Below, one piece after another: positions 6,091-60,908 of a stretch of 64,000 bases of DNA. The stretch spans positions 90,953-154,952 of the forward strand of contig CAJWJK010000003.1 in the NCBI GenBank assembly GCA_913041535.1, written 5' to 3'. The notes under the pieces were generated by a model. That model was not told where the DNA came from. It made no database searches and saw only the letters and a program-made list of their open reading frames with translations. Source of the DNA: an uncultured Alphaproteobacteria bacterium (lineage in GTDB: Bacteria > Pseudomonadota > Alphaproteobacteria > VGEJ01). Position numbers and translations under genes: made by a program. Every line of letters starts with the position of its first letter. Position 1 is the first letter of the stretch.

Positions 6091-6095
6091 TCGTG

Positions 6096-9929: not shown

Positions 9930-9965
9930 CGCGGAAAAATTGGGGAAACATGTTTTGTATTGTTT

Positions 9966-12244: not shown

Positions 12245-12288
12245 TCAGAGGTTGTGATGCGAAACAATGTTTTTGGATCCTTGTTCAA

Positions 12289-12828: not shown

Positions 12829-12890
12829 CACGCAAGTTAGTAGATATCAGCTGCCTTGTTCTTCATGGACTAACATAAAAAAACCATTGA

Positions 12891-43801: not shown

Positions 43802-43856
43802 ACTGAGGCTAAAGGATGTGAAAGAACGCTGGAGAACTTCTATTAGAGCCTTTTGG

Positions 43857-44669
43857 ATGGGCATTCTTACCGTATTGCGCATAGATGTACGTGGGTTTTT
43901 CATCCCCTATCGGTATGCAGCCCTTTTGCAAACTCAGGAAGTGAAATATCCATTGCTTGAAACAGTGTTTAACAAGAGGAGGCAAAGTTTTGTTGAAGTT
44001 CTCGATTCAATAGATTCGTTCGAAGCTAATTTAAATAAAATTGGAGGTGAACCACCTCCCGCTCCGCGCTTTGATCAAGGGTGGTTTCCAACGCTTGATG
44101 CTGCAGCGGCATACGCTCTAGTTCGTAGGAACATCCCAAAAAGACTTGTGGAGGTCGGCTCTGGTCATTCCACACGGTTCTTAATGCGAGCACTGATTGA
44201 TGAGCGAGCCAATATAAAGTTCACTTCTATTGATCCTATGCCGCGCGCTGATATCTGTGGTTTGCCTCTAGAACTTATTCGCTCGACTGTGCAAGAGGTT
44301 GGGACGGGAATAACCGATGTACTGGAATCCGGAGATATCTTATTTATCGATTCTAGTCATGTGCTAATGCCTGGTAGTGACGTAGATTGGGTTATTAATC
44401 AAGTTTTTCCCTCTTTAGAGCCTGGCGTATTGATTCATGTGCACGACATTTTCTTGCCTGACGCATACCCCTCATCATGGGCGTGGCGTGGCTACAACGA
44501 GCAGACCGCGATTTCAGCTCTAATAACCAATTCCCCAGGTTATGAAGTGGTGTTTGCCAGTCACTATGTTAGTGCTCGAATGTCGGATCTCTTGGCCAGG
44601 ACTATAGTTAATAGACTTCCTTGTTACACTGATTCACATGCTTCTAGCCTCTGGCTACGTAAGCAGTGA
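43857..44669 (+). CDS. class I SAM-dependent methyltransferase-like protein (Methyltransf_24-like)
   Basis: LVEVGSGHSTRF (motif I-like) ... ILFIDSSH ... IHVHDIF; the start was moved to an internal Met. Confidence 0.45.
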   Translation: MGILTVLRIDVRGFFIPYRYAALLQTQEVKYPLLETVFNKRRQSFVEVLDSIDSFEANLNKIGGEPPPAPRFDQGWFPTLDAAAAYALVRRNIPKRLVEVGSGHSTRFLMRALIDERANIKFTSIDPMPRADICGLPLELIRSTVQEVGTGITDVLESGDILFIDSSHVLMPGSDVDWVINQVFPSLEPGVLIHVHDIFLPDAYPSSWAWRGYNEQTAISALITNSPGYEVVFASHYVSARMSDLLARTIVNRLPCYTDSHASSLWLRKQ

Positions 44670-44861
44670 CAGTTCGTATGAGAGAGTTTCCAAGCACATA
44701 AAAAGATTTATTGTACGTAATCAAAGCCCAGAAAACTCTTGAAAGTCCCCATCCAGGGTTCTTAAGAATGCTCTTATATCAGGCTTTGTATAGCGAAAAG
44801 AGACGCATACCCCAAATGAACACGGGGACTGGTAAATAATGATTTAAGCTCATCTCTGAGA

Positions 44862-46037
44862 CTATTTATATGGATCGGCAGCGTCTCGAAGGCCGTCACC
44901 AAAGAAGCTCAAGGCAAGAACCACTATCATTACGGGAGCAACCGGCAACATTAGCCATGGGTAGATGGCAACGATATCAAAATTTTGTGCTTCGTTAAGA
45001 AGCACGCCCCAGCTGGTAATTGGTGGTCGGAGGCCCAGGCCTAGATATGATAAAACAGTTTCGCCTAGGATCATGCCTGGTATAGAGAGTGTAACTGAAG
45101 CAATAAGATGCGATGCAAAACTTGGTAGAAGGTGACGTGAGATCACCCGTCTGGGGCTTGCGCCCATTAACACAGCTGCGACTGCAAAATCTTCCTCGCG
45201 CAATGATAGAAGTTTGGAACGGACTGCACGAGCAAGTCCAGGCCACTCGATGAGGCCAAGTATGACAGTAATTCCTAAGTAAATTAATATAGGGCTCCAT
45301 GTTACCGGGAGTGCGGCGGATAGTGCCATCCAAAGAGGCAATTCAGGAAAGGAGCGGATAATTTCAATGAGGCGTTGTACAGCAGAGTCGACCCAGCCGC
45401 CAAAGTATCCCGCCATTCCACCTAGCACGATTCCAAATACAAAGCTGATTATTACTCCGACTAGACCGATGGTAAGGGAGATGCGTGTTCCATATATTAT
45501 TCGGGACAGCTGATCTCGCCCCAATCTATCGGTACCAAGCAGATAGAGACTTCCATTTTCAGCTGGGCAAAAAAGGTGAAAACGTCCTTCTACTGCACCC
45601 CAGAATTCATAGCTATCGCCCATACAGAAGAAACGAAGGCGCTGAATGTTGTCATTATTGGGGGTATAGACTCTTTGCAAGTTCTCCATATCTAGCTTGT
45701 AATCGTAACCGTAAACGAAGGGACCGATGAAGCTACCTTCGTGAAATAAATGTAGTCCCTGTGGTGGCGCATAAATGTGGGTTCGGTCTCGTGTGTTGAG
45801 GTGATAAGGCGCAAGCACCTCACTAATCAATATGGATCCGTACATAAAGAGAAGCACAATTGCCGAAATCACGGCTAGTTTGTGGCGACGGAACTTCCAC
45901 CACATGATTCTCCACTGCGATGCCATGAAAAACCGTTCTTGCTCGGGTGTCATGACCTCTGTTGCGTACGGGTCAAAAGGTTCCTTGCTAACAAAATGCT
46001 GCAACGGAGTTTCTTTTTTTGTCTCAGAGTCAGTCAT
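44862..46037 (-). CDS. ABC transporter permease, YejE-like (peptide/opine family)
   Basis: 391 aa; BPD_transp_1 signature region and an N-terminal extension typical of YejE. Confidence 0.75.
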   Translation of the reverse strand: MTDSETKKETPLQHFVSKEPFDPYATEVMTPEQERFFMASQWRIMWWKFRRHKLAVISAIVLLFMYGSILISEVLAPYHLNTRDRTHIYAPPQGLHLFHEGSFIGPFVYGYDYKLDMENLQRVYTPNNDNIQRLRFFCMGDSYEFWGAVEGRFHLFCPAENGSLYLLGTDRLGRDQLSRIIYGTRISLTIGLVGVIISFVFGIVLGGMAGYFGGWVDSAVQRLIEIIRSFPELPLWMALSAALPVTWSPILIYLGITVILGLIEWPGLARAVRSKLLSLREEDFAVAAVLMGASPRRVISRHLLPSFASHLIASVTLSIPGMILGETVLSYLGLGLRPPITSWGVLLNEAQNFDIVAIYPWLMLPVAPVMIVVLALSFFGDGLRDAADPYK

Positions 46038-47059
46038 TTTAGACGTTTACCACCAAGACGGATGCGGGGGTCCAGCACACTAAGAGCTATATCAGATATG
46101 AACATGCCTACCACGGTTAGAAGTGTGAGCATAAAGATCAATGCTCCAGCCAGATATTGGTCTTGCGAACGCAATGCTTGGACAAGTAGCGGGCCAAGCG
46201 TTGGTAAAGAAAGTATCATTGCAATAAGGGCTGAGCCTGAAATGAGTGTTGGAAGCAAGTTTCCGATATCGGCAATAAATGGATTCAAGGAGACTCGTAA
46301 AGGGTATTTGATCAATAGTCGCGTGGCAGGCAGTCCCTTCGCTCGACCGGTTACCACATATTGTTTCTGAAGTTCGTCCAGTAGATTAGCTCGGAGTCTT
46401 CTTATCATACCAGCTGTACCCGAGGTGCCAATAATGACTACGGGTATCCACAAGTGTTCTAGAACTGACAGGAGTTTGTCCCAGGACCATGGTTGATTAA
46501 TGTACTCAGGGGCCATCAAACCACCAATAGAGGTGCCAAAATGGACATTTGCGAAATACATTATGATGAGGGCTAGTAAGAAATTTGGAGTTGCTAATCC
46601 CAAAAACCCAACAAAACTTAAAGTGTGATCACCCCAACTGTACTGATGTGTTGCAGAATATACGCCAATGGGAAAAGCCATGATCCATGTGAACAGCACA
46701 ACGGAAAAGTTCAGTAACACAGTGAAAGCGATGTTTCCGCTAACCACTTCGCTTACCGGGCGGTCAAACTCAAAGGAATGTCCAAGGTTCCCTTGCAATA
46801 GGCCGGAGAATCCATTTGGACCTTCTAAAATACCAATCCAAACACCGTATTGCTCAACAAAAGGTCGATCTAGAGAGTATTCGTGCCGCAAGAACTCAAT
46901 TTGATCAAGAGCAGCAGTATCCCCCTGAGACCGAAGTTCTGAAATTTGATTTGAAAGGTAATCGCCGGGAGGTGCTTGAATTATCAAAAACGTCAGGAAA
47001 CTGATGATCAGAATCGTTGGGATCATGATCAATATTCTGTGTGTAAGGTACGTAAACAT
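46034..47059 (-). CDS. ABC transporter permease, YejB-like
   Basis: 341 aa; six transmembrane helices with the EAA-like loop. Confidence 0.75.
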   Translation of the reverse strand: MFTYLTHRILIMIPTILIISFLTFLIIQAPPGDYLSNQISELRSQGDTAALDQIEFLRHEYSLDRPFVEQYGVWIGILEGPNGFSGLLQGNLGHSFEFDRPVSEVVSGNIAFTVLLNFSVVLFTWIMAFPIGVYSATHQYSWGDHTLSFVGFLGLATPNFLLALIIMYFANVHFGTSIGGLMAPEYINQPWSWDKLLSVLEHLWIPVVIIGTSGTAGMIRRLRANLLDELQKQYVVTGRAKGLPATRLLIKYPLRVSLNPFIADIGNLLPTLISGSALIAMILSLPTLGPLLVQALRSQDQYLAGALIFMLTLLTVVGMFISDIALSVLDPRIRLGGKRLK

Positions 47060-47073
47060 TTCAGTTTCTGAGC

Positions 47074-49002
47074 TCAGGGAGATTCAGACGTTTCGTACCA
47101 GAAGGTATCTGGTCGGTATATTCCAAATTGTGCTCCTGGGTTCCAGTTATAAACCGCGTTACGTGGTAAATTTCGTAAGCTATTATGGACTACAACTGGC
47201 TGCATAATGCCTGATATTATGCCAATCGAGAACACTTGGTCCTTATGAATTTCCAGCATCCTATGCCAAATTGCTTCTCTCTCATCCTTGGTGGGGGTCA
47301 CAAGCCAAGCCTTATGCAGTCTTAAAAGCTCAACTGCAGGTTGCATGTCTGGAGCTTCACCAGAAGCCCCATTCGTTTCATAGTATTGGCCCCATTTGGG
47401 CCATTGGTACGCGTGTTGCCGTGTAGGGGCCAGCTCTTCTGGGCTCATTTCTGGTGTAGGCAGCCCATTTTCGATACCGGACCATATGGAAATCTGAGTT
47501 TCACCGGAAAAGATTCTGTTGCGAAAGACTTCTCGTTGGGAGGGGCGTGTATAGACCTTGATGCCAATTTCTGCCCAGTTATCACGGATCAACTCTAATA
47601 CATCTGTTTGCTCTGTATCCTCGCCAGCAGTCTCGATAATTACTTCGAATGGTCTTCCATCAGGAAGTAGTCGATGGCCGGAGTAATTGCGCTCTTTTAG
47701 CCCCACCTCATCGAGTAGTTCGTTGGCTTTACGCGGATCATACTGTGACCAATCGGTTTGATAGTGGGGCTTAAACAATGGGCTATCCGTTAGGACCGTA
47801 TTATTGCCCTCTACGGCTAGACCAAAATATAGGACTTGATTAATAAGACCTCTATCTATAGCGATCGATAAGGCACGGCGTACGCGGACATCTCGAAATA
47901 CAGTCCTCCACACAGGATCGTTAATGTTCAAGTTAGGGTATAGTGCTAGGTGGGAACCTTTCGCCGTTCGCCATAGAAGCGTAGAATAGTTGTTCCTTTT
48001 CTCGCCTTTCTTGAGAAACGTGTAGTTGTTGAAAAATAGGCTACGGGATTGGAGGTCCACTTCACCAGCACTTGCCTTTCCAGGAATGAGCTTGCTGTCG
48101 GCAATAGTTAATATGAAACGATCAATATATGGCAGTTGGCGGCCATTTTCGTCTATACGGTGATAATACGGGTTACGCTCGCCCACAAAGCGATTAGACT
48201 GGTCTGCAGTCGTGTTACGCCACGGTTGTAGTGTTGGTAAATCAGGATTATCAAATTTGTATAGGTTGTCCATGCGATTATGGAGTGATGCCCAGTTACG
48301 CTTACCTGCTGCTAATGCTCGCTCCGCAAGCCTCTCGGCACTGGCGTATTTTGAGTGAAACAGTTTCATATAATGAGCTGGTCGGTAGATGAATAGTGGT
48401 GCCGCGTGTGCAATCGCTGGCAGGAATAGAGGATTAGGAGCAGACCACGTGTAGCGGATCGTATTGACATCTATAACTTCGAAACGTGGTCGTTTCCCAT
48501 TAACCATCATTTCCTTGGGAGGACCAGAAGGCCGAAGATCTTTGTTTGTTGCGACGTCTTCCCAGTAATAGCGAAAGTCTTCACTCGTAAAAGGATGTCC
48601 GTCAGACCACTTGTGTCCAGGGCGCAGTTTGATGGTAAAGATTCGTCCTTCGTCAACTGTGATTGATTGTGCGATGTCGGGAACTATATCAAATTTAGTA
48701 TTATATCCGACTAATCTAGAGTAACCGTAGACAACAAAAAGCCGCACATCTTTGGCCCTTACGCCCAACATTCGAAGTTCTCCACCATGTTGTCCTGGCG
48801 TCAAACCGTTACCACGAAGTTTTATAACTCTAGGTGTTTCGGGAACTCGTTCGTACACTGGGGGTAGTTCCCCAGCCGCCACCTGTTTGTGGAGCATGGG
48901 TGTCTCAACCCAATCCCCCGCGGCACCATGTGTTGCTGTGGCAATCGTTATCGAAAGTAACGTGAAAATAACCAGCGAATAAAGTGTTTGGCGCGGGTTC
49001 AT
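47074..49002 (-). CDS. ABC transporter substrate-binding protein, family 5 (YejA-like)
   Basis: Signal peptide [26 protein letters not shown] and ~640-aa cluster-C SBP length; start moved to give a 4-nt overlap with the ATPase gene. Confidence 0.75.
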   Translation of the reverse strand: MNPRQTLYSLVIFTLLSITIATATHGAAGDWVETPMLHKQVAAGELPPVYERVPETPRVIKLRGNGLTPGQHGGELRMLGVRAKDVRLFVVYGYSRLVGYNTKFDIVPDIAQSITVDEGRIFTIKLRPGHKWSDGHPFTSEDFRYYWEDVATNKDLRPSGPPKEMMVNGKRPRFEVIDVNTIRYTWSAPNPLFLPAIAHAAPLFIYRPAHYMKLFHSKYASAERLAERALAAGKRNWASLHNRMDNLYKFDNPDLPTLQPWRNTTADQSNRFVGERNPYYHRIDENGRQLPYIDRFILTIADSKLIPGKASAGEVDLQSRSLFFNNYTFLKKGEKRNNYSTLLWRTAKGSHLALYPNLNINDPVWRTVFRDVRVRRALSIAIDRGLINQVLYFGLAVEGNNTVLTDSPLFKPHYQTDWSQYDPRKANELLDEVGLKERNYSGHRLLPDGRPFEVIIETAGEDTEQTDVLELIRDNWAEIGIKVYTRPSQREVFRNRIFSGETQISIWSGIENGLPTPEMSPEELAPTRQHAYQWPKWGQYYETNGASGEAPDMQPAVELLRLHKAWLVTPTKDEREAIWHRMLEIHKDQVFSIGIISGIMQPVVVHNSLRNLPRNAVYNWNPGAQFGIYRPDTFWYETSESP

Positions 49003-50879
49003 GATTCTATTTGTGGTGCCACAGATGTACGTACGAAATGACCCTCGCCAAGATCCAGCATACTTAGTGATTGGGTTCCGTCTATAGTATAGGGTGTAGG
49101 CCAATCGGCTGGGTTAGAGGCTTTGCCCGACATCAATCCGGTAAGATCAAGAGGGTCATCTGGGTCGGGCTTTGGGACGGCCGAAAGAAGTGCACGTGTA
49201 TAGGGGTGAATGGGGTTCTGAAATAATACTTCTCTTGGCGCAAGCTCGACCAAACATCCGGAGCACATGACAGCTATCCGATCGGCAATATAGTCAACTA
49301 CAGCTAGATTGTGTGATATGAAGATATAGGTCAGGGTGAGATTCGTCTGCAGCTCTTTGAGAAGATTTAGGACCTGCGCTTGCACGGACACATCAAGAGC
49401 TGATACTGGTTCATCGCAGATTAATAGTTCTGGCTGGAGTGCAAGAGCTCGGGCAATTCCTATCCGCTGACGTTGACCCCCTGAGAAACTATGGGGATAG
49501 CGTCGTCGATGTCTTACATTGAGGCCCACCAACTCCATTAACTCCGTTACGCGCTGAGCTCGGAAAGTTTCGTCACCTATTTTGTGGATAATCAGGGGTT
49601 CATTAATTATATCAAAAACAGTCATGCGGGGGTTAAGTGAGCTGAATGGGTCTTGGAAGATGTATTGGACACTTCGACGAAAATTCCATAGTTCCTTACC
49701 CTGCAATTTTAGTACGTCGATCATGTGTCCATTATCGTTAAATAGAACCTCGCCTGAATCGGCTGATAAAGCGCGCATTAAGATTTTGCTCGTTGTAGTC
49801 TTGCCACAACCTGACTCGCCCACAAGGCCAAGACAGGAGCCTCGTGGCACTTCAAAGCTAACATTATCTACAGCAATAGTGGCATCGTTGGTCTTTTTGC
49901 TAAAAAAAGAGCGTTTCCGGCCATCGAATGACTTGCTTAAGTTGCGGACGCTCAACAAAGGGCCTGCTTTGATCGCTTCGTTGCTCCAAGGTTTACTTTC
50001 TGTATGTAGGAGCTCTCCTTTACTTTTAATTTCTCGAATTGGTATGAGTCTTTCTTCTGGTTTCATGTTGAACCGAGGGACAGCAGACAATAACGCGGTC
50101 AGATATGGGTGTTGGGGATCGTGAAAAATATCGTGCAAAGAGCCATGCTCCATAACTTTGCCATGATACATAACCACGACTTCATCTGCCATGTTGGCAA
50201 CGACTCCCAGATCATGAGTGATCATCAGAATTGCCATTTGGAGCTCGCGCTGCAAGTCATTCATGAGCTTTAGAATCTGAGCTTGGATCGTCACGTCCAA
50301 TGCAGTTGTTGGTTCATCGGCAATCAAGAGAGCGGGGTTGCAGATTAGAGCCATTGCAATCATTGCTCGTTGGCGCAGCCCGCCCGAAAGCTCAAACGGA
50401 TAAGATTGTAGCGCGCTACGGGGGCTAGGGAAGCCAACTAAACGAAGCATATCTTCTGCGACATCAAGCCCTTTTTTTCGGTTTGCAACACGATGTAAAT
50501 GAAAAGCTTCTGTAATTTGGTTTCCAATAGTATGAAGTGGTGAGAGAGACGTCATCGGCTCTTGGAAGATGATAGAGATGCGCCCACCTCGCAAAGCTTG
50601 CATGTCTTTGCTATCTGGTGGCAGATTGCAGATATCAATTACAGGGCCATCCGTTGTGGGGTCACAGAAATCGATAGTGCCTTCAGCAATATGCGCTACT
50701 TTTGGTAAAATACCCATAATGGCTTGAGATACCACCGATTTTCCCGAGCCAGATTCGCCCACCAGTGCCACTGTTTTTCCCTGTGGAACTCTAAACGAAA
50801 CACCATCTACGGCACGAAGTATGCCATCTGGTAGGTCAAAATGAACTTTTAGGTTGGAAATTAGTAAAACATCAGACAT
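48999..50879 (-). CDS. ABC transporter ATP-binding protein with duplicated ATPase domains (YejF-like)
   Basis: Two Walker A motifs ([16 protein letters not shown]), two LSGG signatures ([16 protein letters not shown]), and two oligopeptide C-terminal extensions. Confidence 0.85.
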
Positions 50880-51376
50880 TAACGTCTCTCCAGGGTGCCA
50901 ATAGGTGCATCTAGCGCGTAAAGATTATCTGTTGTTGTTGAATCCAATACGATACCGCGATTACGCGCTTCACGTGCGGCTGCTAGTGCAATATCTTCAA
51001 AACCCTCTAATGAAGAGTCTAATTTAATTTGCCTTGTTCGTGGGCCCATTAGGCTAAGCTGCATCCATCCGTTCCTTCGATCACGGCGAGTTGTGTAATA
51101 TCGGAGGCGAACTCGCTCGAGTCTACACCAATCAAGCTCGGCACGAAAAAGCCCAGTGCTTTCGACTCCAGAGCTAGTTAACGCCACTGTTGTTATTTGG
51201 CGGAGAACAGTGCGTATAGCAAAGACGGTGAAAAGCAATGCTAAGAATAAAAGAATGTATGCAGTTATTGTAAATATGTCTGTTATGATTAAAGGGCCAG
51301 CCGTTAGTGACAGGCCCACACCAGCGCGAAGATAATCAAGTATCAAAGATTTGATAGGGTATCGGTGTTGAGTCAT
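50879..51376 (-). CDS. hypothetical membrane protein (2 TM + cytosolic domain)
   Basis: 165 aa; translationally coupled on both sides (4-nt and 1-nt overlaps). Confidence 0.4.
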   Translation of the reverse strand: MTQHRYPIKSLILDYLRAGVGLSLTAGPLIITDIFTITAYILLFLALLFTVFAIRTVLRQITTVALTSSGVESTGLFRAELDWCRLERVRLRYYTTRRDRRNGWMQLSLMGPRTRQIKLDSSLEGFEDIALAAAREARNRGIVLDSTTTDNLYALDAPIGTLERR

Positions 51377-52137
51377 GTCTCAACGCTAAAGATTTTGTCT
51401 GGGTGTGGCCAGATAGTGCTTTGTTCGACTGTAAGAACAGTCAGAAGTGAGTCTAAAAACTTCCAACTCGGTTCATCCATTACCAGATGATGTGTAAGCA
51501 GACCAGTTGGCTCGTTCTGGTCAACGATTCCCATTCGCCGATTAGATAAGTGCTGAACAAGGATGTGTACGCATGAATCAATTCCACGAAAATGGGGTTC
51601 TGGTTGCCAATTTAGAATGTCTACATGCACGTTGGTCTGCTGTACGCCCGTCGAAACCTCATTGATCTCTCGCGCGCCAAGAGTTGAGAGGCCGCGTACA
51701 CCTAGAGAATATAAGTGAGGGTATAGGTCGGGATTCATCCGATTCCAGGGAGGGACAAGAACTGGCAACGCAATATTGCCAAACAGAGTATCCATGGTTT
51801 CAGAACTACGTTCAATCTCCGCCAACACTTCGAATGATGGGCGATGTGAACCCCATTCAATTTTGCGTTCTCCGACGGGTGCATAATTCCGATGCAAGAA
51901 TCCATGCGTCGCTACTCTAGTTTCCGGATAAATTGATAGGTATTCAGTTAGGCGTGGGTCCGCTAGTTTTGGAATAGCAGCCAGGCATGGCGCAATATTG
52001 TGTCGCGTGACTAGATCAAAAAGGCGGTCAAGCGCAGCGGTTGGTGTCTGCACATCATCGTCACGCAACCACATGCTAGGTTGTCGGCCAACCCGTTTCC
52101 ACGCGTCAAGTTCTTGAACCAGGGCGGACCAACTCAT
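51373..52137 (-). CDS. divergent polysaccharide deacetylase (NodB-like) family protein
   Basis: WLRDDD (motif 1-like) and VATHGFLHRNY (HxxxH motif 2). Confidence 0.4.
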   Translation of the reverse strand: MSWSALVQELDAWKRVGRQPSMWLRDDDVQTPTAALDRLFDLVTRHNIAPCLAAIPKLADPRLTEYLSIYPETRVATHGFLHRNYAPVGERKIEWGSHRPSFEVLAEIERSSETMDTLFGNIALPVLVPPWNRMNPDLYPHLYSLGVRGLSTLGAREINEVSTGVQQTNVHVDILNWQPEPHFRGIDSCVHILVQHLSNRRMGIVDQNEPTGLLTHHLVMDEPSWKFLDSLLTVLTVEQSTIWPHPDKIFSVET

Positions 52138-53291
52138 TTGGGAGCACACTCCGCCCAGTCCTGAACCAACGATACGGTGGTTGCGAGCCCTGAAGTATTT
52201 AAACTGAAAGCGCAATTAGGAGTAGCGTCCATTGCATCTCGTATAGCTGATGCGAGAGATGTGGGGTTGAGGCTTGATTCTGGGACCATTTTCACAAACC
52301 CACGTTTAGCAAGTCGCGCCGTGCGGATTGTTTGTTCAGTTTCCGTTCCCTGCGAGAAAGGAACAATTACGCAACGAGCTTTGGAAACGAGAGCCTCACA
52401 CGTAGTGTTGTAGCCACCTTGACTAATTGAGAGGGCACAATGGTTTAGCAATTTTGGAAAGTCAGTACGGGCACGTTCAACAATTAGGTTTTCGTCGGAT
52501 GATTTCTGCAGAGCCTGAAAGGAGCTTTCAGACACCCCTGTTCCGACCAATACCCGCCAGAGATTGTCTTTAAGAACTGTCGATTTTCGCGCTAAAATGG
52601 CTGTTTCAAGTAGACTCAGCCCCACAGCACCGCCCCCAGCGGAAACAATTACTTCGCCTTGTGCGTGGTGGGTTTTTTCTGCCGCAGCTTGTGTCGGATC
52701 AACTGTGTACCCTGTGTAGACAAGTTGGCTCGCTATTTTATCGGCATTTACAAAGGTTTCATTAAAGGTGATGAATTTGGGATCGCCGTGGATAAGCACA
52801 TAGTCGAAGTATGATTTTATAAGTTCTACAGTTTCGTTGTTACGAATAGGGGTGCGACTGCCGCTTAGAATATCACGGACTGAAGATACGACGATAGTCC
52901 GGTGTCCACTGGATTTCACCAAATCCAATAGTGGAAGTAATTCAAACTTCATTTGACGGCGCCCAAATGGGAAAAGTTCAAGGATTACAACATCAGGCTT
53001 ATGGTTTTTCCAAACCTCCAGGAGGTGGTTGCATCTTGATCTGCGCCACGAATCATTAACTGGCTGGTTATTCATATCCACTAGAGTCGTGAAATTGTGA
53101 TCAATGGTTCGAACTGGAGATAATTGCACGAAACGGCTTGACCCAAGGTCAAGGTGGGGTAATGGCTCGCCTCCCGAAACAAGAATAACATCAAGACCGA
53201 CTTTGCTTAAGTTGCGGCTGATTAGGGCAGCCCTGTGTAGATGGCCAATGCCTAATAGGTGTTGAACGTAGAAGAGCACCTTCTTAGCCAT
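52134..53291 (-). CDS. glycosyltransferase, GT1/MurG-like fold (GxGHxxR family)
   Basis: N-terminus LFYVQHLLGIGHLHRAALISRNL; paralogous to the GT at 56367..57620. Confidence 0.55.
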   Translation of the reverse strand: MAKKVLFYVQHLLGIGHLHRAALISRNLSKVGLDVILVSGGEPLPHLDLGSSRFVQLSPVRTIDHNFTTLVDMNNQPVNDSWRRSRCNHLLEVWKNHKPDVVILELFPFGRRQMKFELLPLLDLVKSSGHRTIVVSSVRDILSGSRTPIRNNETVELIKSYFDYVLIHGDPKFITFNETFVNADKIASQLVYTGYTVDPTQAAAEKTHHAQGEVIVSAGGGAVGLSLLETAILARKSTVLKDNLWRVLVGTGVSESSFQALQKSSDENLIVERARTDFPKLLNHCALSISQGGYNTTCEALVSKARCVIVPFSQGTETEQTIRTARLAKRGFVKMVPESSLNPTSLASAIRDAMDATPNCAFSLNTSGLATTVSLVQDWAECAPK

Positions 53292-53918
53292 TTAGTCTTC
53301 ACTATCTTCAGAGTTGTAGGGATGAGCTCTGGCAGTCAGCAAGGGTACATTTAGACACTCTATCTGTGGGTGGCCGTCGGTGTTTAGAGCGAATAGGTGG
53401 AGTGAGTGCCAATCTAGTTTGAAAGGGGGGGCACCGGTAAGGTCCCAGTTTAAAGCAAGACTAAGTAATGCACGGATTACTCCTTTATGTGTTATGGCTA
53501 GAGTCGTTTCTCGTGCGGCTGCAACTTCTTTCAAGAAAGGTCTTAAGCGATCCTGAACTTCACGTGGACTCTCTCCTTCAGGGGGTTTTAGGTCGAGGCC
53601 TCGTTCCTCAGCTGCAACGAACTCTGTTCCTAGTTCCTGTCGGAGGTTTGCTATGGTTTCCCCTTCCCACAGCCCCCAGTCCATTTCTATAAGACGTATA
53701 TCAGTTTCGAATGAACAAACGTTGAGACAACGAGCAGTCTCAACAGCTCGGACAAGGGGGCTTGTCCTACAACGGACGCCAGAAAAGGTATTCGGAAGCT
53801 GCAATTTAGATAATTCCTGGCGAGCATCACTAGTAATGGAAACATCGGCTCTACCTTGTAGCCGTCTTTGAATGTTCCAATCGGTTTGGCCATGGCGGAA
53901 AAGGGCTAGTGTTGTCAT
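53292..53918 (-). CDS. histidine phosphatase family protein (phosphoglycerate-mutase-like)
   Basis: LFRHGQTDWN catalytic RHG motif. Confidence 0.75.
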   Translation of the reverse strand: MTTLALFRHGQTDWNIQRRLQGRADVSITSDARQELSKLQLPNTFSGVRCRTSPLVRAVETARCLNVCSFETDIRLIEMDWGLWEGETIANLRQELGTEFVAAEERGLDLKPPEGESPREVQDRLRPFLKEVAAARETTLAITHKGVIRALLSLALNWDLTGAPPFKLDWHSLHLFALNTDGHPQIECLNVPLLTARAHPYNSEDSED

Positions 53919-55078
53919 GGTTGGGGCTTTCGAGAAAAGGCACGCACTGTACTCAAAATACGATGCAGTCCCTGAGCTGCATTGCGGATCCCTCGCTCTG
54001 TGTGCACAAAGTGAGCACCTTGGTTTCCCATGCTTTCACGTCGTTTCTTATCTTTGAGAAGTTGCAACATTAAGTTCGCAAAACCCTCGATGTCTCCTTC
54101 GGGCGATAGGAGGCCGCTTTCATGGTCTTGGACTACATCAGGCACACCGCGGACGCGAGCGCTGACTATAGGGAGACCGGCTGCTTGTGCCTCAAGAAAG
54201 GATAAACCGTAGGCCTCGTTAACGGCTGGCCACACATAAATATCGCAGGCCGCGTAGATCAATGCCAGGTCTTCCTGTGGTAGTTTGCCGAGAAAGATTA
54301 TACGTTGATCAGGGAATTCTGAGAACGCCTCCTCAACACTCGTTCGAGCTTCCCCATCTCCAACTATGAGATGTTGCCAGTCTTCATCCAGCATTTTTCT
54401 GAGTGCCGAGGCAAGAAGCTGATATGAGGCAAGTTTGTCCCCATATCGCAGCATTCCAACCGATAACAGCCACGGCTTGTTTAATGAACATCGAAATTTT
54501 TCGTTCAAAGTCCTGCGGGCCTTCACGCGCTGTTTCCTTGTCTCTGTGAAGGGCGCGGTATCGATAAAAGGGGGAAGGTAATGGACGTGATCGCCACAAA
54601 TATTTTGATTTCGTAGAGACTGCAGGTCATGTCGGGTTAGACAGATAATAGCATCAGCTATTGTTATCGCTTTCTGTGTAGCTTCGTGACCAATTATCCA
54701 CGGGGTCGATGCACGTTTTGATGCTAGTGATGCTTCTGCAATAACGTATGGTATACCCAACTTTTGGCTTAACCGAGGACCAAGCCAATCCGGCGCGCGA
54801 TAATAGACGTGATATGTCAGCCATAATTCTGGCCTTTGATTTGGATGAAGTGATGAAAAATGTTCTTCTAGAAGAATTGCTTCTAGCTCCGCGGCTTGGC
54901 AGATTTTTTCTTGCTTGGAACCATTCGCAGAACGGTCATAGCTTCTGAATTCAGAGACAACATTAACTTCATGCCCAATAGAGTTCAGTGCGCCGATCAG
55001 CAATCGTGCCATTTGGCGATCGCCAGAGGGCGTGGGGTGGTATGGGGATTTAAGCGGCGCGTAGAAAACGATGCGCAT
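53915..55078 (-). CDS. glycosyltransferase family 4
   Basis: GT4 C-terminal EX7E-type region (…EAYGLSFLEAQAAGLPIV…). Confidence 0.75.
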   Translation of the reverse strand: MRIVFYAPLKSPYHPTPSGDRQMARLLIGALNSIGHEVNVVSEFRSYDRSANGSKQEKICQAAELEAILLEEHFSSLHPNQRPELWLTYHVYYRAPDWLGPRLSQKLGIPYVIAEASLASKRASTPWIIGHEATQKAITIADAIICLTRHDLQSLRNQNICGDHVHYLPPFIDTAPFTETRKQRVKARRTLNEKFRCSLNKPWLLSVGMLRYGDKLASYQLLASALRKMLDEDWQHLIVGDGEARTSVEEAFSEFPDQRIIFLGKLPQEDLALIYAACDIYVWPAVNEAYGLSFLEAQAAGLPIVSARVRGVPDVVQDHESGLLSPEGDIEGFANLMLQLLKDKKRRESMGNQGAHFVHTERGIRNAAQGLHRILSTVRAFSRKPQP

Positions 55079-55104
55079 GTCTGAGATAAGACCTAAGAGC
55101 TACA

Positions 55105-56361
55105 CTATGTTGTGATGCCTATAGAGGCTGTATTATGTCTAGGCAACCCAAATAGTTTAGCGATACCGTCAATTTTTTCATCCATGTGGAATTGCGCTCG
55201 AATTAGCTGTTCTCCTGCTCGTCCCATGTCTAGCCGTAGTTGCGGTTCTAGCATTAGGCGTGTCAGCGCTTGGTGCAGTGCCAGAGGGTTATTTGGAGGA
55301 ACTAATAGCCCATTAATGCCATCTTCTATCAGTTCTGGTATTGCGCCCGCAGTTGTTGCTACGCATGGAACAGACTGACTTTGCGCTTCAACTAGGACGT
55401 TTGGCAGCCCATCACGGTCTCCGTCGGCACCAATGCAGCTGGCTAATACAAATATATCTGCATCACGGTAGGCAGCTAGCACTGCATCGTGTGCAAGTGG
55501 TCCTCGCCAATCAATCTGTTTGCTAATGCCCAGGGAATGCGCCTGGTGTTTGAGCTGTTTGTCGAGAGGGCCGGCACCTATATGCACCAGCCGCCAGTGT
55601 AAGGTCTTGGGAATCTTTGCTAGTGCATCTAGTAGTATCGAATGTCCCTTTTTTTCCACTGTTCTCCCGATTGAAAGCAAAATTAGAGGATCGTTCCGGC
55701 TGCCGTGCTTTCTGGCTTTTGGAAGATGCGGGTTTGTCGAGAAGTATGAGAGGTCTATTCCGTGATAGTTGAGGTGTACACTTTCCGAAGATCCTAGACT
55801 CTTAAGGTGGGTATGTATGGATTGGTTGCAGGTCGACAACCAAGAGCACGACGCAATCTTTTCCAGTTTCTCCCAGACGGGAATTGTCCATACATCTTTA
55901 GCATGTGCCGAACAGCTCCAAGGCAACTCATTAAGTATGCTCGCATAGCGGGTCACTGATGCTGGAGTATGAAGAAAGTGAGCATGAAGCTGATCAACAT
56001 TTGAATCTAGTTCATGAGCTAGTATTAGAGCTTGACCAAAACGCCGAAGACGGCTTGAGGTAAAATCCCGCCATAAGTCACGCAGCCAGGCTCTCTGTGC
56101 TGTTTTGTACGTAGTACGATTGTGAAGAGCAGCCCAGGCTCGGACTAAGCGCAGAGGTTCTTTATGAAGATATTCGGGTAGATAGTAGATAGGGGCCTTA
56201 ATATCGCTATGAATCATGTGAGTGTATTGGTCAGTTGGTTGGCGCAGTGAATATATGCTGATGAAAAGTCCACGGCGCTCAAGCGCTCGTATTTCCTGTG
56301 CTATAAATGTTTCTGACAAGCGGGGGTAGCCTTTTAGGACAAAGGCAACGTGGCGACTCAT
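55105..56361 (-). CDS. glycosyltransferase family 4 (WcaL/colanic-acid-type)
   Basis: N-terminus VLKGYPRLSETFIAQEI is typical of WcaL-like GT4 enzymes; the C-terminus carries GLPNVLVEAQSQSVPCV. Confidence 0.7.
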   Translation of the reverse strand: MSRHVAFVLKGYPRLSETFIAQEIRALERRGLFISIYSLRQPTDQYTHMIHSDIKAPIYYLPEYLHKEPLRLVRAWAALHNRTTYKTAQRAWLRDLWRDFTSSRLRRFGQALILAHELDSNVDQLHAHFLHTPASVTRYASILNELPWSCSAHAKDVWTIPVWEKLEKIASCSWLSTCNQSIHTHLKSLGSSESVHLNYHGIDLSYFSTNPHLPKARKHGSRNDPLILLSIGRTVEKKGHSILLDALAKIPKTLHWRLVHIGAGPLDKQLKHQAHSLGISKQIDWRGPLAHDAVLAAYRDADIFVLASCIGADGDRDGLPNVLVEAQSQSVPCVATTAGAIPELIEDGINGLLVPPNNPLALHQALTRLMLEPQLRLDMGRAGEQLIRAQFHMDEKIDGIAKLFGLPRHNTASIGITT

Positions 56362-56366
56362 CTCAG

Positions 56367-57620
56367 TTATGCATGTTGGCGGTTCACGCGTAGATCAGAT
56401 TGAACGTTGGCGTGTTGACCAAGCCACGGTGAGGCTAGACGATTGACATTTGTTAAACCTTCGAGCAAACCCGGAACCACCACTTCCGAGGGTTTCCGTT
56501 GTTGTGGAAGCGCTCGGAGAGCGCTAATCATGGCTTCTACGGGCCGGCTTCCATCGTCTACTAGCATTTGAACTAAGCCTAGTTCTTGAGCTCGAGATGC
56601 CCGAATGTATTGTTCTAGCCGGGGCTTAGTTCGGGGCACAATTATTGCCTTTTTATCCAAAGATAAGATTTCGCAGAAGGTGTTGTATCCGCCCATTGCT
56701 ACGATGCCTGCAGCATTTGCTTCCAGGTTTTCAATATGAGCATCAAACGTAATTGCTTGTACTCTAGGAAGTCTCTCAGCGCGAACTAGAAATTCTTTCT
56801 GCAGCTCAGGCTGCATGAAGGGTCCTAAAACCATCAGAGCCGGATAAGGTAGTAGGGATTCTCTTTCATATGCTCGGAGCACCCAATCAATCAATTCAGC
56901 TCCGTCTCCACCACCCCCAGTTGTAACCAGCAGATATGGGCTCTGTGTCACAGGAGGTGGAGGATGGGCAACAACCGGTTTGCTTATTCTTCTCGGCAGG
57001 TAGCCCGTGTACACGATCTTAGACTTAACAATTTCTGGCAGATCGATCCCAGACAGTGGGTTGCAGATTTGAGGTAATCCATATACCCATATCTCATCGT
57101 ACAGGTCACACAAGCTCGGTATCACATTTTTGCGCGCCCATTCTGGTGCTAGAAGTGCTGGTTCGTCGAGGATATCACGTAGGCCGAGCACAAGACGACA
57201 TCCCCTTTTCTGAAGCATAGGCAAGGCATTCCTAACTTCACCACGTAGGCCGAGTGGCTCTTTATCTACAATGAATATGTCCGGATCAAATATCTTAGCC
57301 GTGTGGTGGATAATGGACGATCGAATCGACAAGGTTTCTTCAACGCCCATGTGCAGATTTAAAGGAGTGTATTCTCCATTTCGAAGTTTAATAACACCCG
57401 GAATCCGAACAAAATCTACACGCACACGAAAGTCAAAGCTGCCGATTATGGGTGAACCGGACAGAATCAGAACAGAAAGATTTTTATTTTGTTCTACCAG
57501 GTCGTGGGCAATGGTCAAACAACGGCGAAGGTGGCCAAGCCCAAAGGTATCATGACTGTATATGAGAACGCGGGGGTCTCGGCGTGGTTCTAGACTGGTA
57601 TTTTCAACCGCTTGCAACAT
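56367..57620 (-). CDS. glycosyltransferase, GT1/MurG-like fold (GxGHxxR family)
   Basis: IYSHDTFGLGHLRRCLTIAHDL; paralog of the GT at 52134..53291. Confidence 0.55.
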   Translation of the reverse strand: MLQAVENTSLEPRRDPRVLIYSHDTFGLGHLRRCLTIAHDLVEQNKNLSVLILSGSPIIGSFDFRVRVDFVRIPGVIKLRNGEYTPLNLHMGVEETLSIRSSIIHHTAKIFDPDIFIVDKEPLGLRGEVRNALPMLQKRGCRLVLGLRDILDEPALLAPEWARKNVIPSLCDLYDEIWVYGLPQICNPLSGIDLPEIVKSKIVYTGYLPRRISKPVVAHPPPPVTQSPYLLVTTGGGGDGAELIDWVLRAYERESLLPYPALMVLGPFMQPELQKEFLVRAERLPRVQAITFDAHIENLEANAAGIVAMGGYNTFCEILSLDKKAIIVPRTKPRLEQYIRASRAQELGLVQMLVDDGSRPVEAMISALRALPQQRKPSEVVVPGLLEGLTNVNRLASPWLGQHANVQSDLRVNRQHA

Positions 57621-57763
57621 CGGCAGATAATGGCACGAGAGAGAGCAACGAAAAAGTGACTTTTTTTATCCCCGTTTACCACTGATTTAACCTAAGTTAA
57701 GCTCTTGGCAGTGTAACTTGTTTTCTTCCAGTACAGTGGGCCCCTCAGTGGATAGAGAGTTTA

Positions 57764-60415
57764 ATGGAATCCAGCATATTTAGATTTGTACTGCGTCACA
57801 GTTTTCGCCAGCAGATTATGCTCACTTTAATGGCGGCAGCTTCTTTTCCGTTTCTTTACGCGTTTTATGAAGTGCCGAAGGCTATAGTGAATGATGCTAT
57901 CCAGGGTGGGACCACCTTTCCTGTGGAGATATTTGGCGTTGAACTTGGCCAGTTGGCATACTTGCTAGTGCTCTGTGCGCTTTTCTTATTACTCGTAGTT
58001 GTAAATCAATCATTTAAGTACTCTGTGAACGTATATAGAGGTCTAACTGGGGAGCGTATGCTTCGTCGGTTACGTTATGAGCTGTACTCACGTGTGCTGC
58101 GCTTTCCTCTACCCACTTTTCGAAAGATGTCACAGGGTGAGATCATTCCAATGATTACGGCTGAAGTAGAACCGCTAGGTGGTTTTATCGGTGATGCATT
58201 TTCTTTGCCCGCATTCCAGGGGGGGACTCTTTTCGTAATCCTTGCTTTCTTGTTTATTCAGGATCCCCTCATGGCTGGGGCAGCTGTCTCTCTGTATCCC
58301 CTACAGGTTTATGTCATTCCGAAATTACAAAGGCGCGTTAATCGATTAGGTAAGGAGCGAGTACGTTTGGTAAGACGACTATCGGACCGCATAGGGGAGA
58401 CTGTGCAAGGCGTGCCAGAAATTCGTGTTCATGACACCTCAAACTTTGCCCTGGCTCATTTTTCTCATCAATTGGGTTTAATTTTTGGCGTCCGTTATGC
58501 AATTTACCGACAAAAGTTCTTTATTAAGTTTCTCAACAATTTTATCCAGCAATTGGGGCCGTTTTTCTTTTATTCTATTGGTGGCTACCTGACTATTACG
58601 GGAAGTCTTGAGATCGGCACATTGATTGCTGCTATTGCCGCGCATAAGGATCTTGCGTCTCCTTGGAAGGAACTTTTACGCTACTACCAAATGAAAGAGG
58701 ATGCTCGGATTAAGTATGAGAATGTAGTGAGTCAGTTCGCTCCCCCTGGCATACTTGATGAGAGGTCTCAGATTGACGATTCGGATATTTCCACAAAGTT
58801 GCAAGGTGAATTAAACACGGCGAATTTGACTCTAACTGATGATCAAGAAACAAGTGTGGTTGATGGGGTGTCTTTCCGTTTTAGCCTTGATCAAAACGTT
58901 GCAATAGTGGGTGTAAATGGATCTGGTAAAGATGAGCTTACTCTACTGCTAGCCCGATTGCTGGATCCGAGTGCTGGATCTATTTCCGTTAACGGCAATG
59001 ACCTTTCTGGCATGTCTGAGACAGTGACTGGCGGGCGGATCTCTTACGTGGGCCCTCAGGGTTTTATTTTTGCTACAACTTTGGGTGAAAATCTATTTTT
59101 TGGTTTAAAGCATGTTCCGTTAATTGCTCCAGACTATGATTCTGATCAGACGATAAAAAGAGAACGCGAGGTTGCTGAGGCAGAACGTTCAGGAAACAAT
59201 AGCTTTGATATACATGCGGACTGGATCGACTATAAAGCTGCTGGCGTTGGAGACTTGGTTGCATTGCGGCAGGAAGCACTGCGGGTTCTTAAGCTTGTAG
59301 ATCTTGGGCCTGACATCTACGACCTCGGATTGAGGGGGACTATCGACCCAGATTCGCATCCCAAGGTAGCTCAGAGTATCTTAAAGGCTCGACGTGCTTT
59401 ACGCGAGCGCGTGGCCAAAGACCCCAATATGAGCTCTCTCGTGGAGACGTTTGATAGAGAAACCTATAACACCAACGCAACTGTCGGTGAGAATCTTCTT
59501 TTCGGAAATCCCGTGGGTGCAGACTTTGCGATGGATAGTCTAGCAGAGGATGAATATGTGCTTTCTGTGCTAGACCAAGCGGGATTAAAAGACACCTTGT
59601 TGTCCATTGGATACCAAGTGGCTTCTACCATGGTAGAACTGTTTGCTGACCTACCTGCTGATCACGAGTTTTTTCAGCAATTTAGTTTTATCAGTTCAGA
59701 GGATTTGCCTGAATTTCAAGGTCTTCTAGCTCGCGTCGATCGGAGCCAACTTAATTCAGTTGAGGCTGAAGATCGAATCCGATTAATGTCTCTTCCTTTT
59801 AAACTCATCACTGCGCGCCACCGTTTGGATCTAATTGATGAAGACGTTCAGGCGAAGATATTGGATGCCCGTGAAATTTTTGCTTCTAGTCTTCCCGATG
59901 AGCTTAAAGACTCTGTAGAGTTCTACGATGACGACCGATACAATAGTAAGGCAAACCTTCAAGATAATATTCTCTTTGGCAAAGTTGTATACGGAGAAGC
60001 ACACGCATCTGATAAGGTTGGGGAGTTAATCGCCGAAGTAATTAGGGAACTGGATTTGGAAGATACAGTGGGCCTTGTGGCGCTGGACTATGATGTTGGA
60101 ATCGGGGGGTCTCGTCTTTCAGGTGCCCAGAGGCAGAAACTGGCCATTGCTCGTGCAGTGCTTAAGGCGCCTGATATCTTGATTCTTTCAGAAGCAACTG
60201 CATCGCTTGATGCTGCAGCTCAATTGAGGCTCTCTCCGGCACTTATGCAAGAGTTTGGCAATAGGTGTCTAATATGGTCCCTCAATAACCCAGCACTTGC
60301 CGAAAACTTTGATCATATACTGGTTATGCATAATGGGAGAGTAGTGGAGCAGGGTTCTTATTCGGATCTAAATAAGGACAATACTCAGTTTAAGCAGTTG
60401 TTGGCAGCCGTATAG
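57764..60415 (+). CDS. atypical ABC exporter-like protein: type-I exporter TMD fused to a degenerate, expanded nucleotide-binding domain
   Basis: N-terminal ~330 aa is an ABC_membrane-type six-TM domain. The NBD has Walker A GVNGSGKDE (Ser/Thr replaced by Asp), signature LSGAQ, Walker B ILILSEATASLD (Asp replaced by Ser), and H-loop His replaced by Ser (CLIWSLNN). About 420 aa separate Walker A from the signature and contain three copies of a T(L/V)GENLxFG-like helical-subdomain segment. Confidence 0.7.
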   Translation: MESSIFRFVLRHSFRQQIMLTLMAAASFPFLYAFYEVPKAIVNDAIQGGTTFPVEIFGVELGQLAYLLVLCALFLLLVVVNQSFKYSVNVYRGLTGERMLRRLRYELYSRVLRFPLPTFRKMSQGEIIPMITAEVEPLGGFIGDAFSLPAFQGGTLFVILAFLFIQDPLMAGAAVSLYPLQVYVIPKLQRRVNRLGKERVRLVRRLSDRIGETVQGVPEIRVHDTSNFALAHFSHQLGLIFGVRYAIYRQKFFIKFLNNFIQQLGPFFFYSIGGYLTITGSLEIGTLIAAIAAHKDLASPWKELLRYYQMKEDARIKYENVVSQFAPPGILDERSQIDDSDISTKLQGELNTANLTLTDDQETSVVDGVSFRFSLDQNVAIVGVNGSGKDELTLLLARLLDPSAGSISVNGNDLSGMSETVTGGRISYVGPQGFIFATTLGENLFFGLKHVPLIAPDYDSDQTIKREREVAEAERSGNNSFDIHADWIDYKAAGVGDLVALRQEALRVLKLVDLGPDIYDLGLRGTIDPDSHPKVAQSILKARRALRERVAKDPNMSSLVETFDRETYNTNATVGENLLFGNPVGADFAMDSLAEDEYVLSVLDQAGLKDTLLSIGYQVASTMVELFADLPADHEFFQQFSFISSEDLPEFQGLLARVDRSQLNSVEAEDRIRLMSLPFKLITARHRLDLIDEDVQAKILDAREIFASSLPDELKDSVEFYDDDRYNSKANLQDNILFGKVVYGEAHASDKVGELIAEVIRELDLEDTVGLVALDYDVGIGGSRLSGAQRQKLAIARAVLKAPDILILSEATASLDAAAQLRLSPALMQEFGNRCLIWSLNNPALAENFDHILVMHNGRVVEQGSYSDLNKDNTQFKQLLAAV

Positions 60416-60434
60416 TGAAGGAAGGGATGACGAG

Positions 60435-60890: not shown

Positions 60891-60908
60891 CCACGATGGT
60901 CCTGTTGA

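Follow-up and report, generated by a model that had tools for sequence, protein, structure and literature searches.

The question raised by the locus described here is why enzymes of glycan assembly should be encoded in one tightly packed run of genes together with an importer of the oligopeptide family. The locus lies in a 64,000-nucleotide stretch of DNA from an uncultured alphaproteobacterium (assembly GCA_913041535.1, contig CAJWJK010000003.1, positions 90,953 to 154,952), hereafter called the window. An initial annotation, prepared from the DNA letters alone, had described it as a twelve-gene array joining glycosyltransferases to a peptide importer of the YejABEF type. Our answer, preferred tentatively and put at less than an even chance, is that the locus encodes a self-contained system for making, exporting and retrieving a small glycan with a free amino group.

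The array runs on the minus strand from 57620 down to 44862. According to the list of open reading frames (ORFs) and their translations it consists of 11 genes, which was also the number in the initial annotation's own gene list, whatever its heading announced:

56367..57620, minus strand, GTa, an inverting-type GT1/GT28-like glycosyltransferase of the GT-B type (Pfam Glyco_tran_28_C, 24.3 bits, cut-off 22)
55105..56361, minus strand, GT4a, a family-4 retaining-type glycosyltransferase (Pfam Glycos_transf_1, 1.3e-34)
53915..55078, minus strand, GT4b, a family-4 retaining-type glycosyltransferase (Pfam Glycos_transf_1, 4e-29)
53292..53918, minus strand, HisP, a histidine phosphatase of branch 1 (Pfam His_Phos_1, 2.5e-39)
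52134..53291, minus strand, GTb, a second inverting-type GT1/GT28-like glycosyltransferase of the GT-B type (Pfam Glyco_tran_28_C, 36.8 bits, cut-off 22)
51373..52137, minus strand, DAc, a cytoplasmic CE4/NodB-fold deacetylase related to DUF2334 (motifs, DUF2334 in relatives, predicted fold)
50879..51376, minus strand, TM2, a small membrane protein (hydropathy; without recognisable family)
48999..50879, minus strand, fused double ABC ATPase of the importer (two ABC_tran and oligo_HPY, Pfam)
47074..49002, minus strand, periplasmic family-5 (cluster C) binding protein (SBP_bac_5, 1.9e-60)
46034..47059, minus strand, importer permease of the OppB/DppB type (BPD_transp_1 and BPD_transp_1_N)
44862..46037, minus strand, importer permease of the OppC/DppC type, PermC (OppC_N and BPD_transp_1)

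The array starts are ATG codons that were also chosen by independent gene calls on identical contigs, which occur in marine metagenomes (Tara and others). Successive junctions from GTa to the OppC-type permease measure +5, +26, -4, 0, -4, -4, -1, -4, +14 and -4 nucleotides, as expected from the earlier description of co-directional genes with overlaps or gaps of 26 nucleotides or less. Six of them are overlaps of 1 or 4 nucleotides, a type linked to translational coupling. Internal promoters or terminators, named in the initial annotation as features that would separate the transporter from the glycosyltransferases, were sought between 44000 and 58500 with a consensus scan, in itself a weak test, which gave 14 terminator-like sites (12.7 expected) and 12 promoter-like sites (20 expected); internal punctuation of the array beyond chance was thus not seen.

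The array was confirmed as described, whereas its limits as a unit were not: with its conserved partners the unit spans 42956-61418, past the array on both sides. The further elements are as follows:

57621..57763, no strand, divergent intergenic region of 143 nucleotides, presumed to hold promoter and control sites
57764..60415, plus strand, ABCexp, an MsbA/ABCB-type ABC exporter of 883 residues (ABC_membrane and split ABC_tran)
60435..60890, plus strand, stand-alone cyclic-nucleotide-binding (CNB) protein of 151 residues (cNMP_binding, 3e-21)
60909..61418, plus strand, S-adenosylmethionine-dependent methyltransferase of the Methyltransf_17 family (Pfam, 1.6e-55)
43839..44669, plus strand, Methyltransf_24-like methyltransferase, convergent with the importer end (Pfam, 3.7e-10)
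42956..43801, plus strand, MBL-fold hydrolase-like protein, convergent with the importer end (47% identical to a recurrent neighbour family)

The exporter gene diverges from the array across the 143-nucleotide spacer. Since the exporter, the CNB protein, the methyltransferases and the MBL-fold gene had been missed earlier, adding them turns a locus read as one of synthesis and import into one of synthesis, export and import.

The simplest explanation of the locus would be that an unrelated glycan pathway and a peptide importer merely lie side by side. It would agree with the best named matches of the importer subunits, which are peptide, nickel or glutathione systems, and with the lack of the importer in some clusters. 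It was weighed against the conservation of the linkage in other genomes, for which fourteen window proteins were mapped by tblastn onto the 80 related loci analysed. Occurrence was counted in those 45 loci in which the deacetylase gene is flanked by 9 kb or more on either side, and the counts are lower bounds, as some clusters run past the 10-kb flank; a crude ORF clustering of the related loci, which yields antisense artefacts in GC-rich genomes, was filtered against the tblastn map. GTa and GTb were present in 43 of the 45 loci, GT4b in 42, GT4a in 41 and the phosphatase in 38. An orthologous importer was encoded in 36, the CNB protein in 31, the exporter in 30, importer and exporter together in 27 and the Methyltransf_17 methyltransferase in 18.

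These clusters were found in three proteobacterial classes, with hosts among Alphaproteobacteria (Azospirillum, Inquilinus, Thalassospira, Pelagibius, Kiloniellaceae and Rhizobiaceae, including Sinorhizobium and Rhizobium), Betaproteobacteria (Casimicrobiaceae, Burkholderiales) and Gammaproteobacteria (Marinobacterium, Pokkaliibacter, Acidiferrobacterales). The gene order varies among them. In Marinobacterium (L051 and L067) and relatives GTa, GTb and deacetylase genes form one group, phosphatase, GT4b and GT4a lie on the opposite strand, and the exporter and the importer follow, while on plasmids of Rhizobium etli and Sinorhizobium meliloti the importer comes first and is followed by co-directional GTa, GT4a, GTb, exporter and CNB genes. 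The linkage of glycosyltransferases and importer was kept through this shuffling, which argues for a shared function; the juxtaposition is therefore not peculiar to one strain, an outcome that the initial annotation had considered damaging to its proposal. In the plasmid collection, matches to the binding protein fell into two groups, one at about 48-53% identity and the other at about 30%, and the searches with the binding protein and the deacetylase gave equal plasmid counts in Azospirillum, Phyllobacterium, Sulfitobacter, Shinella and Tritonibacter, and 82 and 80, respectively, in Sinorhizobium. Matching phyletic profiles on plasmids, an orthologous importer in most loci of three classes and, in the window, stop and start codons that overlap across the very junction between the glycosyltransferase and importer modules make mere adjacency scarcely credible.

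The architecture of the importer, with a fused double ATPase, a family-5 binding protein and two permeases, is indeed that of YejABEF, and to this extent the earlier assignment was sound. The ATPase, 42% identical to Escherichia coli YejF, which is ordinary for this ATPase class, scored 605 bits with the NCBIfam model of GsiA (cut-off 1077) and 508.7 bits with that of YejF (cut-off 834). The OppB-type permease reached 222 bits with Opp4B (cut-off 450) and 103.4 bits with YejB (cut-off 445), and the YejE-type model NF011596 gave 118.8 bits against a cut-off of 439. Orthology to the Yej system was rejected on these scores below the cut-offs, on 26% identity of the importer permease to E. coli YejB, and on a best segment of only 29 bits over 28 residues between the binding protein and YejA of E. 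coli K-12 (BLASTP); the GsiB model gave 40 bits.

The relatives of the binding protein lie elsewhere. In the Protein Data Bank (PDB) it aligns end to end with the Thermotoga maritima ‘OppA’ 5IPW (E 1.3e-86; about 40% identity as read from the alignment) and with SPH1118 (E 7.8e-62), followed by the alpha-galactoside binder MelB (1.8e-20) and a chitin-oligosaccharide binder (2e-12). Its N-terminal hydrophobic segment is consistent with a signal peptide. SPH1118 of Sphingomonas sp. A1 binds oligogalacturonides and hardly peptide digests, and no ligand complex of 5IPW was reported in the same study (PMC9314435). The end-to-end alignments thus show the binding protein to belong to a subgroup whose sole member with a known ligand binds an oligosaccharide. 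The peptide, microcin or glycopeptide framing proposed earlier was consequently abandoned for a protein unrelated to YejA and related to 5IPW and SPH1118, while uptake or recycling of an oligosaccharide, proposed at the same time, fits these relatives well.

For a comparison of the ligand pocket, the window protein was aligned by MAFFT with 33 orthologues linked to the cluster and with both PDB sequences. At the position of the sugar-stacking Trp594 of SPH1118, 31 of the 34 cluster sequences have Trp and the other three another aromatic residue; Arg466 is conserved as well. The uronate-binding Arg57, Arg438 and Arg496 of SPH1118 are replaced in the window protein by Val, Asp and Glu, respectively, and a polyuronate was for this reason rejected as the ligand. 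We read the pocket as of a carbohydrate type, apparently not built for a polyanion. An acidic pocket would be suitable for a ligand that carries a free amine, which at the low identity of the alignment is only a lead. It should be added that in eight loci (L016, L018, L036, L050, L057, L066, L068 and L085), from Pelagibius, Kiloniellaceae and, for L018, Acidiferrobacterales, the importer block has the order ATPase, permease, permease; the binding protein may there be encoded elsewhere or not be needed.

An importer of oligosaccharides could also stand at the beginning of the pathway. An external oligosaccharide, or possibly a peptide or glycopeptide, would then be taken up as the acceptor, deacetylated, dephosphorylated, glycosylated and finally exported, and of all rivals this comes closest to the idea of the initial annotation. 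It agrees with the rhizobial co-directional run from importer through GTa, GT4a and GTb to exporter and CNB, which starts with the importer. Furthermore, no proteins of the cluster are better conserved in tblastn identity than the permeases (PermC 61-89% across the related loci). We nevertheless regard this explanation as distinctly unlikely, given that clusters without an adjoining importer exist (L009), that the binding protein is unrelated to YejA and that one and the same external acceptor would hardly be available to marine free-living, soil and symbiotic hosts alike.

No transmembrane segment or signal peptide was found in any of the six array enzymes by a simple hydropathy scan, and they should therefore act in the cytoplasm. 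No protein of the array reached a curated NCBIfam equivalog cut-off, for which reason names such as WcaL, GsiA and YejF denote family-level resemblance only. The broad labels given earlier (GT1-like, GT4, histidine phosphatase, importer families) were borne out, and that of WcaL survives just as membership of GT4: GT4a scored 96.9 bits with the WcaL model TIGR04005, whose equivalog cut-off is 537.6, and 136 bits with its best NCBIfam model, EpsE (cut-off 400). With Glycos_transf_1, GT4a and GT4b reached 119.7 and 101.8 bits against a gathering score of 26.4, which places both in GT4, while all NCBIfam matches of GT4b remained below the respective cut-offs. The nearest PDB sequences are PimB', MshA and BshA for GT4a, and BshA, MshA, PimB' and sucrose-phosphate synthase for GT4b.

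A PDB sequence search with GTa gave no match and one with the deacetylase profile a marginal match alone, and fold prediction was therefore needed for both. The AF2 model of GTa (pLDDT 72) has a GT-B fold, with GT1 enzymes and MurG as best Foldseek matches. All 8000 scored candidates of the GTa database search had E<=1e-10, and the top 120 clusters were 68-80% identical. GTa is also unusually conserved across the 80 loci (44-78% tblastn identity), clearly more so than the cluster's other enzymes. In the annotation of R. etli CIAT 652 its counterpart is called ‘RedA’ and the GT4a homologue ‘RedB’; no traceable paper behind the redA/redB annotation was found in the literature searched. HisP carries the N-terminal RHG motif LFRHGQTDWN (residues 6-15), scored 135.4 bits with His_Phos_1 (cut-off 21.7) and has PhoE, the fructose-2,6-bisphosphatase domain, alpha-ribazole phosphatase and GpgP as nearest solved relatives.

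The deacetylase itself had no Pfam match above threshold, and the gathering score of Polysacc_deac_1 was not reached. Among 18 relatives, 11 matched DUF2334 (best 2.2e-5) and two Polysacc_deac_1 (E 0.058 or worse). In the alignment of 18 homologues the columns RDDD, HG..H, PPWNR, H.D..W and LLTHH are invariant, with D26-D27-D28, H78..H82, R133, H171/D173/W177 and H216-H217 as the residues concerned; in our reading they would correspond to the Asp-His-His metal triad and the catalytic Asp/His motifs of CE4. The AF2 model (pLDDT 93.4) found CE4 deacetylases as best Foldseek matches (E 1e-7 to 1e-5, TM 0.5-0.75), among them polysaccharide, peptidoglycan and chito-oligosaccharide deacetylases and ArnD. 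The earlier label of a NodB-like deacetylase is thus upheld by motifs, relatives and predicted fold. Downstream of it, TM2 had been taken for a protein with two transmembrane segments; a strict hydropathy window gave one strong segment at residues 34-52, and a second, flanking one is likely. It had no Pfam or NCBIfam match and 12 homologues only in a word-indexed search, and it still adjoins the importer ATPase gene in L020, where the gene order differs.

Gene fusions bring these activities closer together. Four deacetylase relatives (P0284, P0401, P0292 and P0328) are fusions of GTb and deacetylase with 627-646 residues, and P0284 is 42% identical to GTb over 378 residues before a full deacetylase domain follows. 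These fusions tie deacetylation to glycosyl transfer. By its fusion of the deacetylase to a Methyltransf_23 domain, P0363 probably ties methylation to the glycosyl-transfer steps too.

The same combination of binding protein and deacetylase could be taken for a catabolic locus, in which an amino-sugar oligosaccharide from the environment is imported and degraded by the CE4 enzyme, the phosphatase and GT-B proteins working as phosphorylases or transglycosylases. An importer with a family-5 binding protein next to a CE4 chito-oligosaccharide deacetylase is a typical arrangement in chitin catabolism. Chitin-oligosaccharide binders and deacetylases are among the structural relatives found here, and a polysaccharide lyase is encoded directly upstream of the importer in S. 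meliloti. The window cluster, however, encodes four glycosyltransferases, and glycoside hydrolases, kinases and known phosphorylase families are absent from it; its exporter, its methyltransferases and the glycosyltransferase-deacetylase fusions point to synthesis, so that we consider degradation very unlikely.

The exporter of the proposed cycle is of the MsbA/NdvA/HepA type, with unusual details. It scored 189 bits with the MsbA model (cut-off 602) and 138 bits with NdvA (cut-off 733); the ChvA/NdvA models together gave 109-138 bits, HepA matched also, and the PDB matches were ABCB1/ABCB4, TM287/288 and Sav1866. About 300 residues interrupt the nucleotide-binding domain, and three ENLxFG-like motifs are found in them (residues 442, 576 and 734). 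Walker A reads GSGKDE, with an acidic residue in the usual place of Ser/Thr, Walker B reads LILSE, with Ser in the usual place of Asp, and the signature is LSGAQ. Among 29 exporter orthologues, Walker B [S/N]E is kept in all 29, and Gly-Lys plus the acidic residue of Walker A in most, a few having lost the Lys. The protein has therefore neither a canonical nucleotide-binding domain nor equivalog scores of MsbA or NdvA, and the two Walker changes resemble an exchange within the Mg-binding pair in which one change compensates for the other.

Such a transporter raises the question of a lipid product. The glycosyltransferases could decorate a membrane lipid (diacylglycerol or a phospholipid head group), the deacetylase would create a cationic amino-sugar head group, the MsbA-like protein would flip the lipid outward, and the importer would salvage head-group fragments or supply a precursor. 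The best matches of the exporter are lipid flippases (MsbA, ABCB4, ABCB1), although the glycan exporters NdvA/ChvA and HepA match it too. GTa and GTb carry a MurG-type domain, which is also present in MGDG synthases, and GT4a and GT4b resemble PimA/PimB', with weak matches to GlcNAc-phosphatidylglycerol synthase. Moreover, GTa is named ‘membrane-anchored protein’ in the R. etli annotation, and a glycosyltransferase, a CE4 deacetylase and a flippase together making amino-glycolipids have precedent. Against this, none of the array enzymes has a transmembrane segment, and a lipid product would not readily account for a dedicated periplasmic binding-protein importer and a phosphatase of the sugar-phosphate type. 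A glycolipid pathway appears unlikely on balance, and a soluble glycan that is exported and retrieved remains our preferred reading.

The CNB protein has an intact phosphate-binding cassette GEIAILCDVPRTA (GE...RTA), and no DNA-binding domain was detected in it. Its gene always stands beside exporter or glycosyltransferase genes. Membrane class III cyclases are neighbours of the cluster in 16 loci, and also in L009, R. etli and S. meliloti; none was seen near the cluster in the window. Hydrolases of the MBL or HD type recur near the cluster in other genomes as well. Together the CNB protein and the nearby cyclases and hydrolases suggest a private second-messenger circuit. On the other side of the window cluster, the Methyltransf_24-like gene recurs beside the cluster in 11 related loci (52% identity) and the MBL-fold gene family in 9 (47% identity). 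The window MBL-fold protein itself had no Pfam match, and its S. meliloti homologue matches Lactamase_B_2. Both genes at 42956-44669 probably belong to the system.

Put together, the favoured model would run as follows. A short oligosaccharide or glycoside would be built in the cytoplasm, in no more than four transfers and with no undecaprenyl carrier. In one step, possibly that of a GT4 enzyme, the acceptor would probably be phosphorylated and lose its phosphate to the phosphatase afterwards, as we infer from the nearest solved relatives of GT4b and HisP. The deacetylase, directly with GTb, would turn an N-acetyl-hexosamine residue into a free amine, and methyltransferases may decorate the product. 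The ABC exporter would then carry it to the periplasm or outside, with the CNB protein adjusting the activity, or possibly the expression, of the exporter in response to cAMP or cGMP. Finally, the importer would return the product to the cell, either unchanged or after processing. As to the carrier, the initial annotation had noted the lack of Wzx, Wzy, Wzz and an initiating phosphoglycosyl transferase, and this stands: neither these nor Wzm/Wzt are among the 17 genes at 42956-61418 or among the 14 most recurrent extra neighbour families examined across the 80 loci. With no carrier-lipid machinery and with enzymes free of transmembrane segments and signal peptides, an acceptor not linked to undecaprenol is plausible. 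That the product serves more specifically as a cyclic-nucleotide-controlled secreted signal or periplasmic effector, passing an atypical CNB-gated exporter and its own importer in a system widespread in Proteobacteria, the model rhizobia included, is a doubtful proposition that we offer with reserve.

Several observations weigh against the model. Every mechanistic step in it is drawn from family membership and gene linkage, and the pocket comparison rests on an alignment of low identity. The exporter is non-canonical in both Walker A and Walker B, which leaves its activity and direction unproven, and its MsbA-like fold would suit a lipid as well as a soluble substrate. HisP and TM2 are missing from the rhizobial version, and without HisP a phosphorylated primer is not universal. 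No importer lies within 10 kb in 9 of the 45 loci, and in the eight loci named above the importer genes have no binding-protein gene between them. A full cluster without an adjoining importer is exemplified by L009, in which a class III cyclase and an MBL-fold gene follow instead.

The full exporter, glycosyltransferase and deacetylase cluster of L009, with a small membrane protein, occupies positions 1-13200 of its locus (GCA_021776135.1). In R. etli CIAT 652 the cluster corresponds to genes RHECIAT_PA0000036-44 of plasmid pA. The S. meliloti cluster (L095/L096) is situated on pSymB at about 822-845 kb of NC_003078.1. Just upstream of its importer are genes of a PF14099 polysaccharide lyase, a UDP-glucose dehydrogenase, a DUF3095 protein and an adenylate cyclase, and these rhizobial neighbours hint at a product containing uronic acid there. 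The transcriptome paper on Clr covers the nodP2-smb21248 cluster, a neighbour of the glycan cluster in S. meliloti, and not the glycan cluster.

As for control and origin of the window cluster, the blocks TAACTTA, GGTAAACG and AAAAAAGNCACTTT in the divergent region 57621-57763 are common to the two closest related loci and may be control sites; no inverted repeat of 10 nucleotides or more was found in this region. A riboswitch explanation was dropped, as no Rfam family reached the gathering threshold anywhere in the 64-kb window. No tRNA gene was found in it either. The G+C content of the window is even (0.45-0.50), and a recently acquired island was rejected on this uniformity.

No study of the cluster or its function was found in the literature searched (by gene names, COG4671, S. 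meliloti locus tags and keywords). Every part comes from a known protein superfamily; it is their combination that was absent from this literature, namely glycan assembly that needs no carrier, together with its own importer of the Opp family, an ABC exporter of unusual make-up and a receptor for cyclic nucleotides. The system is common: the deacetylase profile matched at least about 600 places in a collection with one genome per species, and an exhaustive search returned 1,120 representatives of the family at the 50%-identity level (E<=1e-30). Clusters are present in tractable hosts, on pSymB of S. meliloti, on plasmids of R. etli and R. leguminosarum and in Azospirillum, and product and role could therefore be found quickly. 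The importer would add a further case of an ‘oligopeptide’ transporter carrying sugars. If the cyclic-nucleotide link is true, the system would represent a protein-level output of cAMP or cGMP that bypasses a transcription factor.

The glycan cluster is a member of none of the known systems with which it was compared. For the importer, the closest in architecture are YejABEF, which imports microcin C and peptides in E. coli, and the glutathione importer GsiABCD. All are type I importers of the Opp/Dpp family that combine two permeases with a fused double ATPase and a binding protein of family 5, and the order of gsiABCD (ATPase, binding protein, permease, permease) is that of the window importer. 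Unlike both, the latter is embedded in a glycosyltransferase operon and none of its subunits reaches the curated cut-offs, while the set of fused ATPase, two permeases and family-5 protein is also common to many non-Yej systems. The binding proteins SPH1118 and 5IPW resemble that of the window in size (about 630-640 residues) and in belonging to cluster C. SPH1118 differs by its uronate-binding arginines, and for neither of the two is a position beside glycosyltransferases reported in the literature searched.

The proposed synthesis has its nearest parallels in pathways for carrier-free glycans. In the Nod-factor pathway (NodC, NodB, NodA, NodIJ) a cytoplasmic oligosaccharide is likewise made without carrier; NodB, a CE4 enzyme, N-deacetylates it, and an ABC transporter serves as exporter. 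That pathway uses the GT2 enzyme NodC and the ABC-2 exporter NodIJ, whereas the window cluster has GT-B enzymes (GT1/28-like and GT4), an MsbA-type exporter and no NodA-type acyltransferase, and possesses a dedicated importer and a cyclic-nucleotide sensor in addition. Cyclic beta-1,2-glucan (Cgs/NdvB with NdvA/ChvA) is a carrier-free glycan brought to the periplasm by an MsbA-like half-transporter, as would be the product proposed here; the window cluster is without a Cgs-type synthase, and its exporter, with the insertion of about 300 residues and the altered Walker motifs, falls far short of the NdvA cut-offs. Mycothiol and bacillithiol synthesis (MshA, MshA2, MshB; BshA, BshB) shares the logic by which a GT4 enzyme acts first, on a small acceptor that is sometimes phosphorylated, and a phosphatase and then an N-deacetylase act after it. 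Their deacetylases are of the LmbE/PIG-L type, in contrast to CE4 in the window, where there are moreover three further glycosyltransferases, no cysteine ligase and scores far below the equivalog cut-offs. A parallel to the whole cycle of making, exporting and re-importing is found in metallophore-type loci such as that of staphylopine, Cnt. Its product is an opine and not a glycan, CntA gave 37 bits and nothing in the window points to metal binding, but in Cnt, as in the present cluster, biosynthesis, an exporter and an importer of the Opp/Nik family are encoded together.

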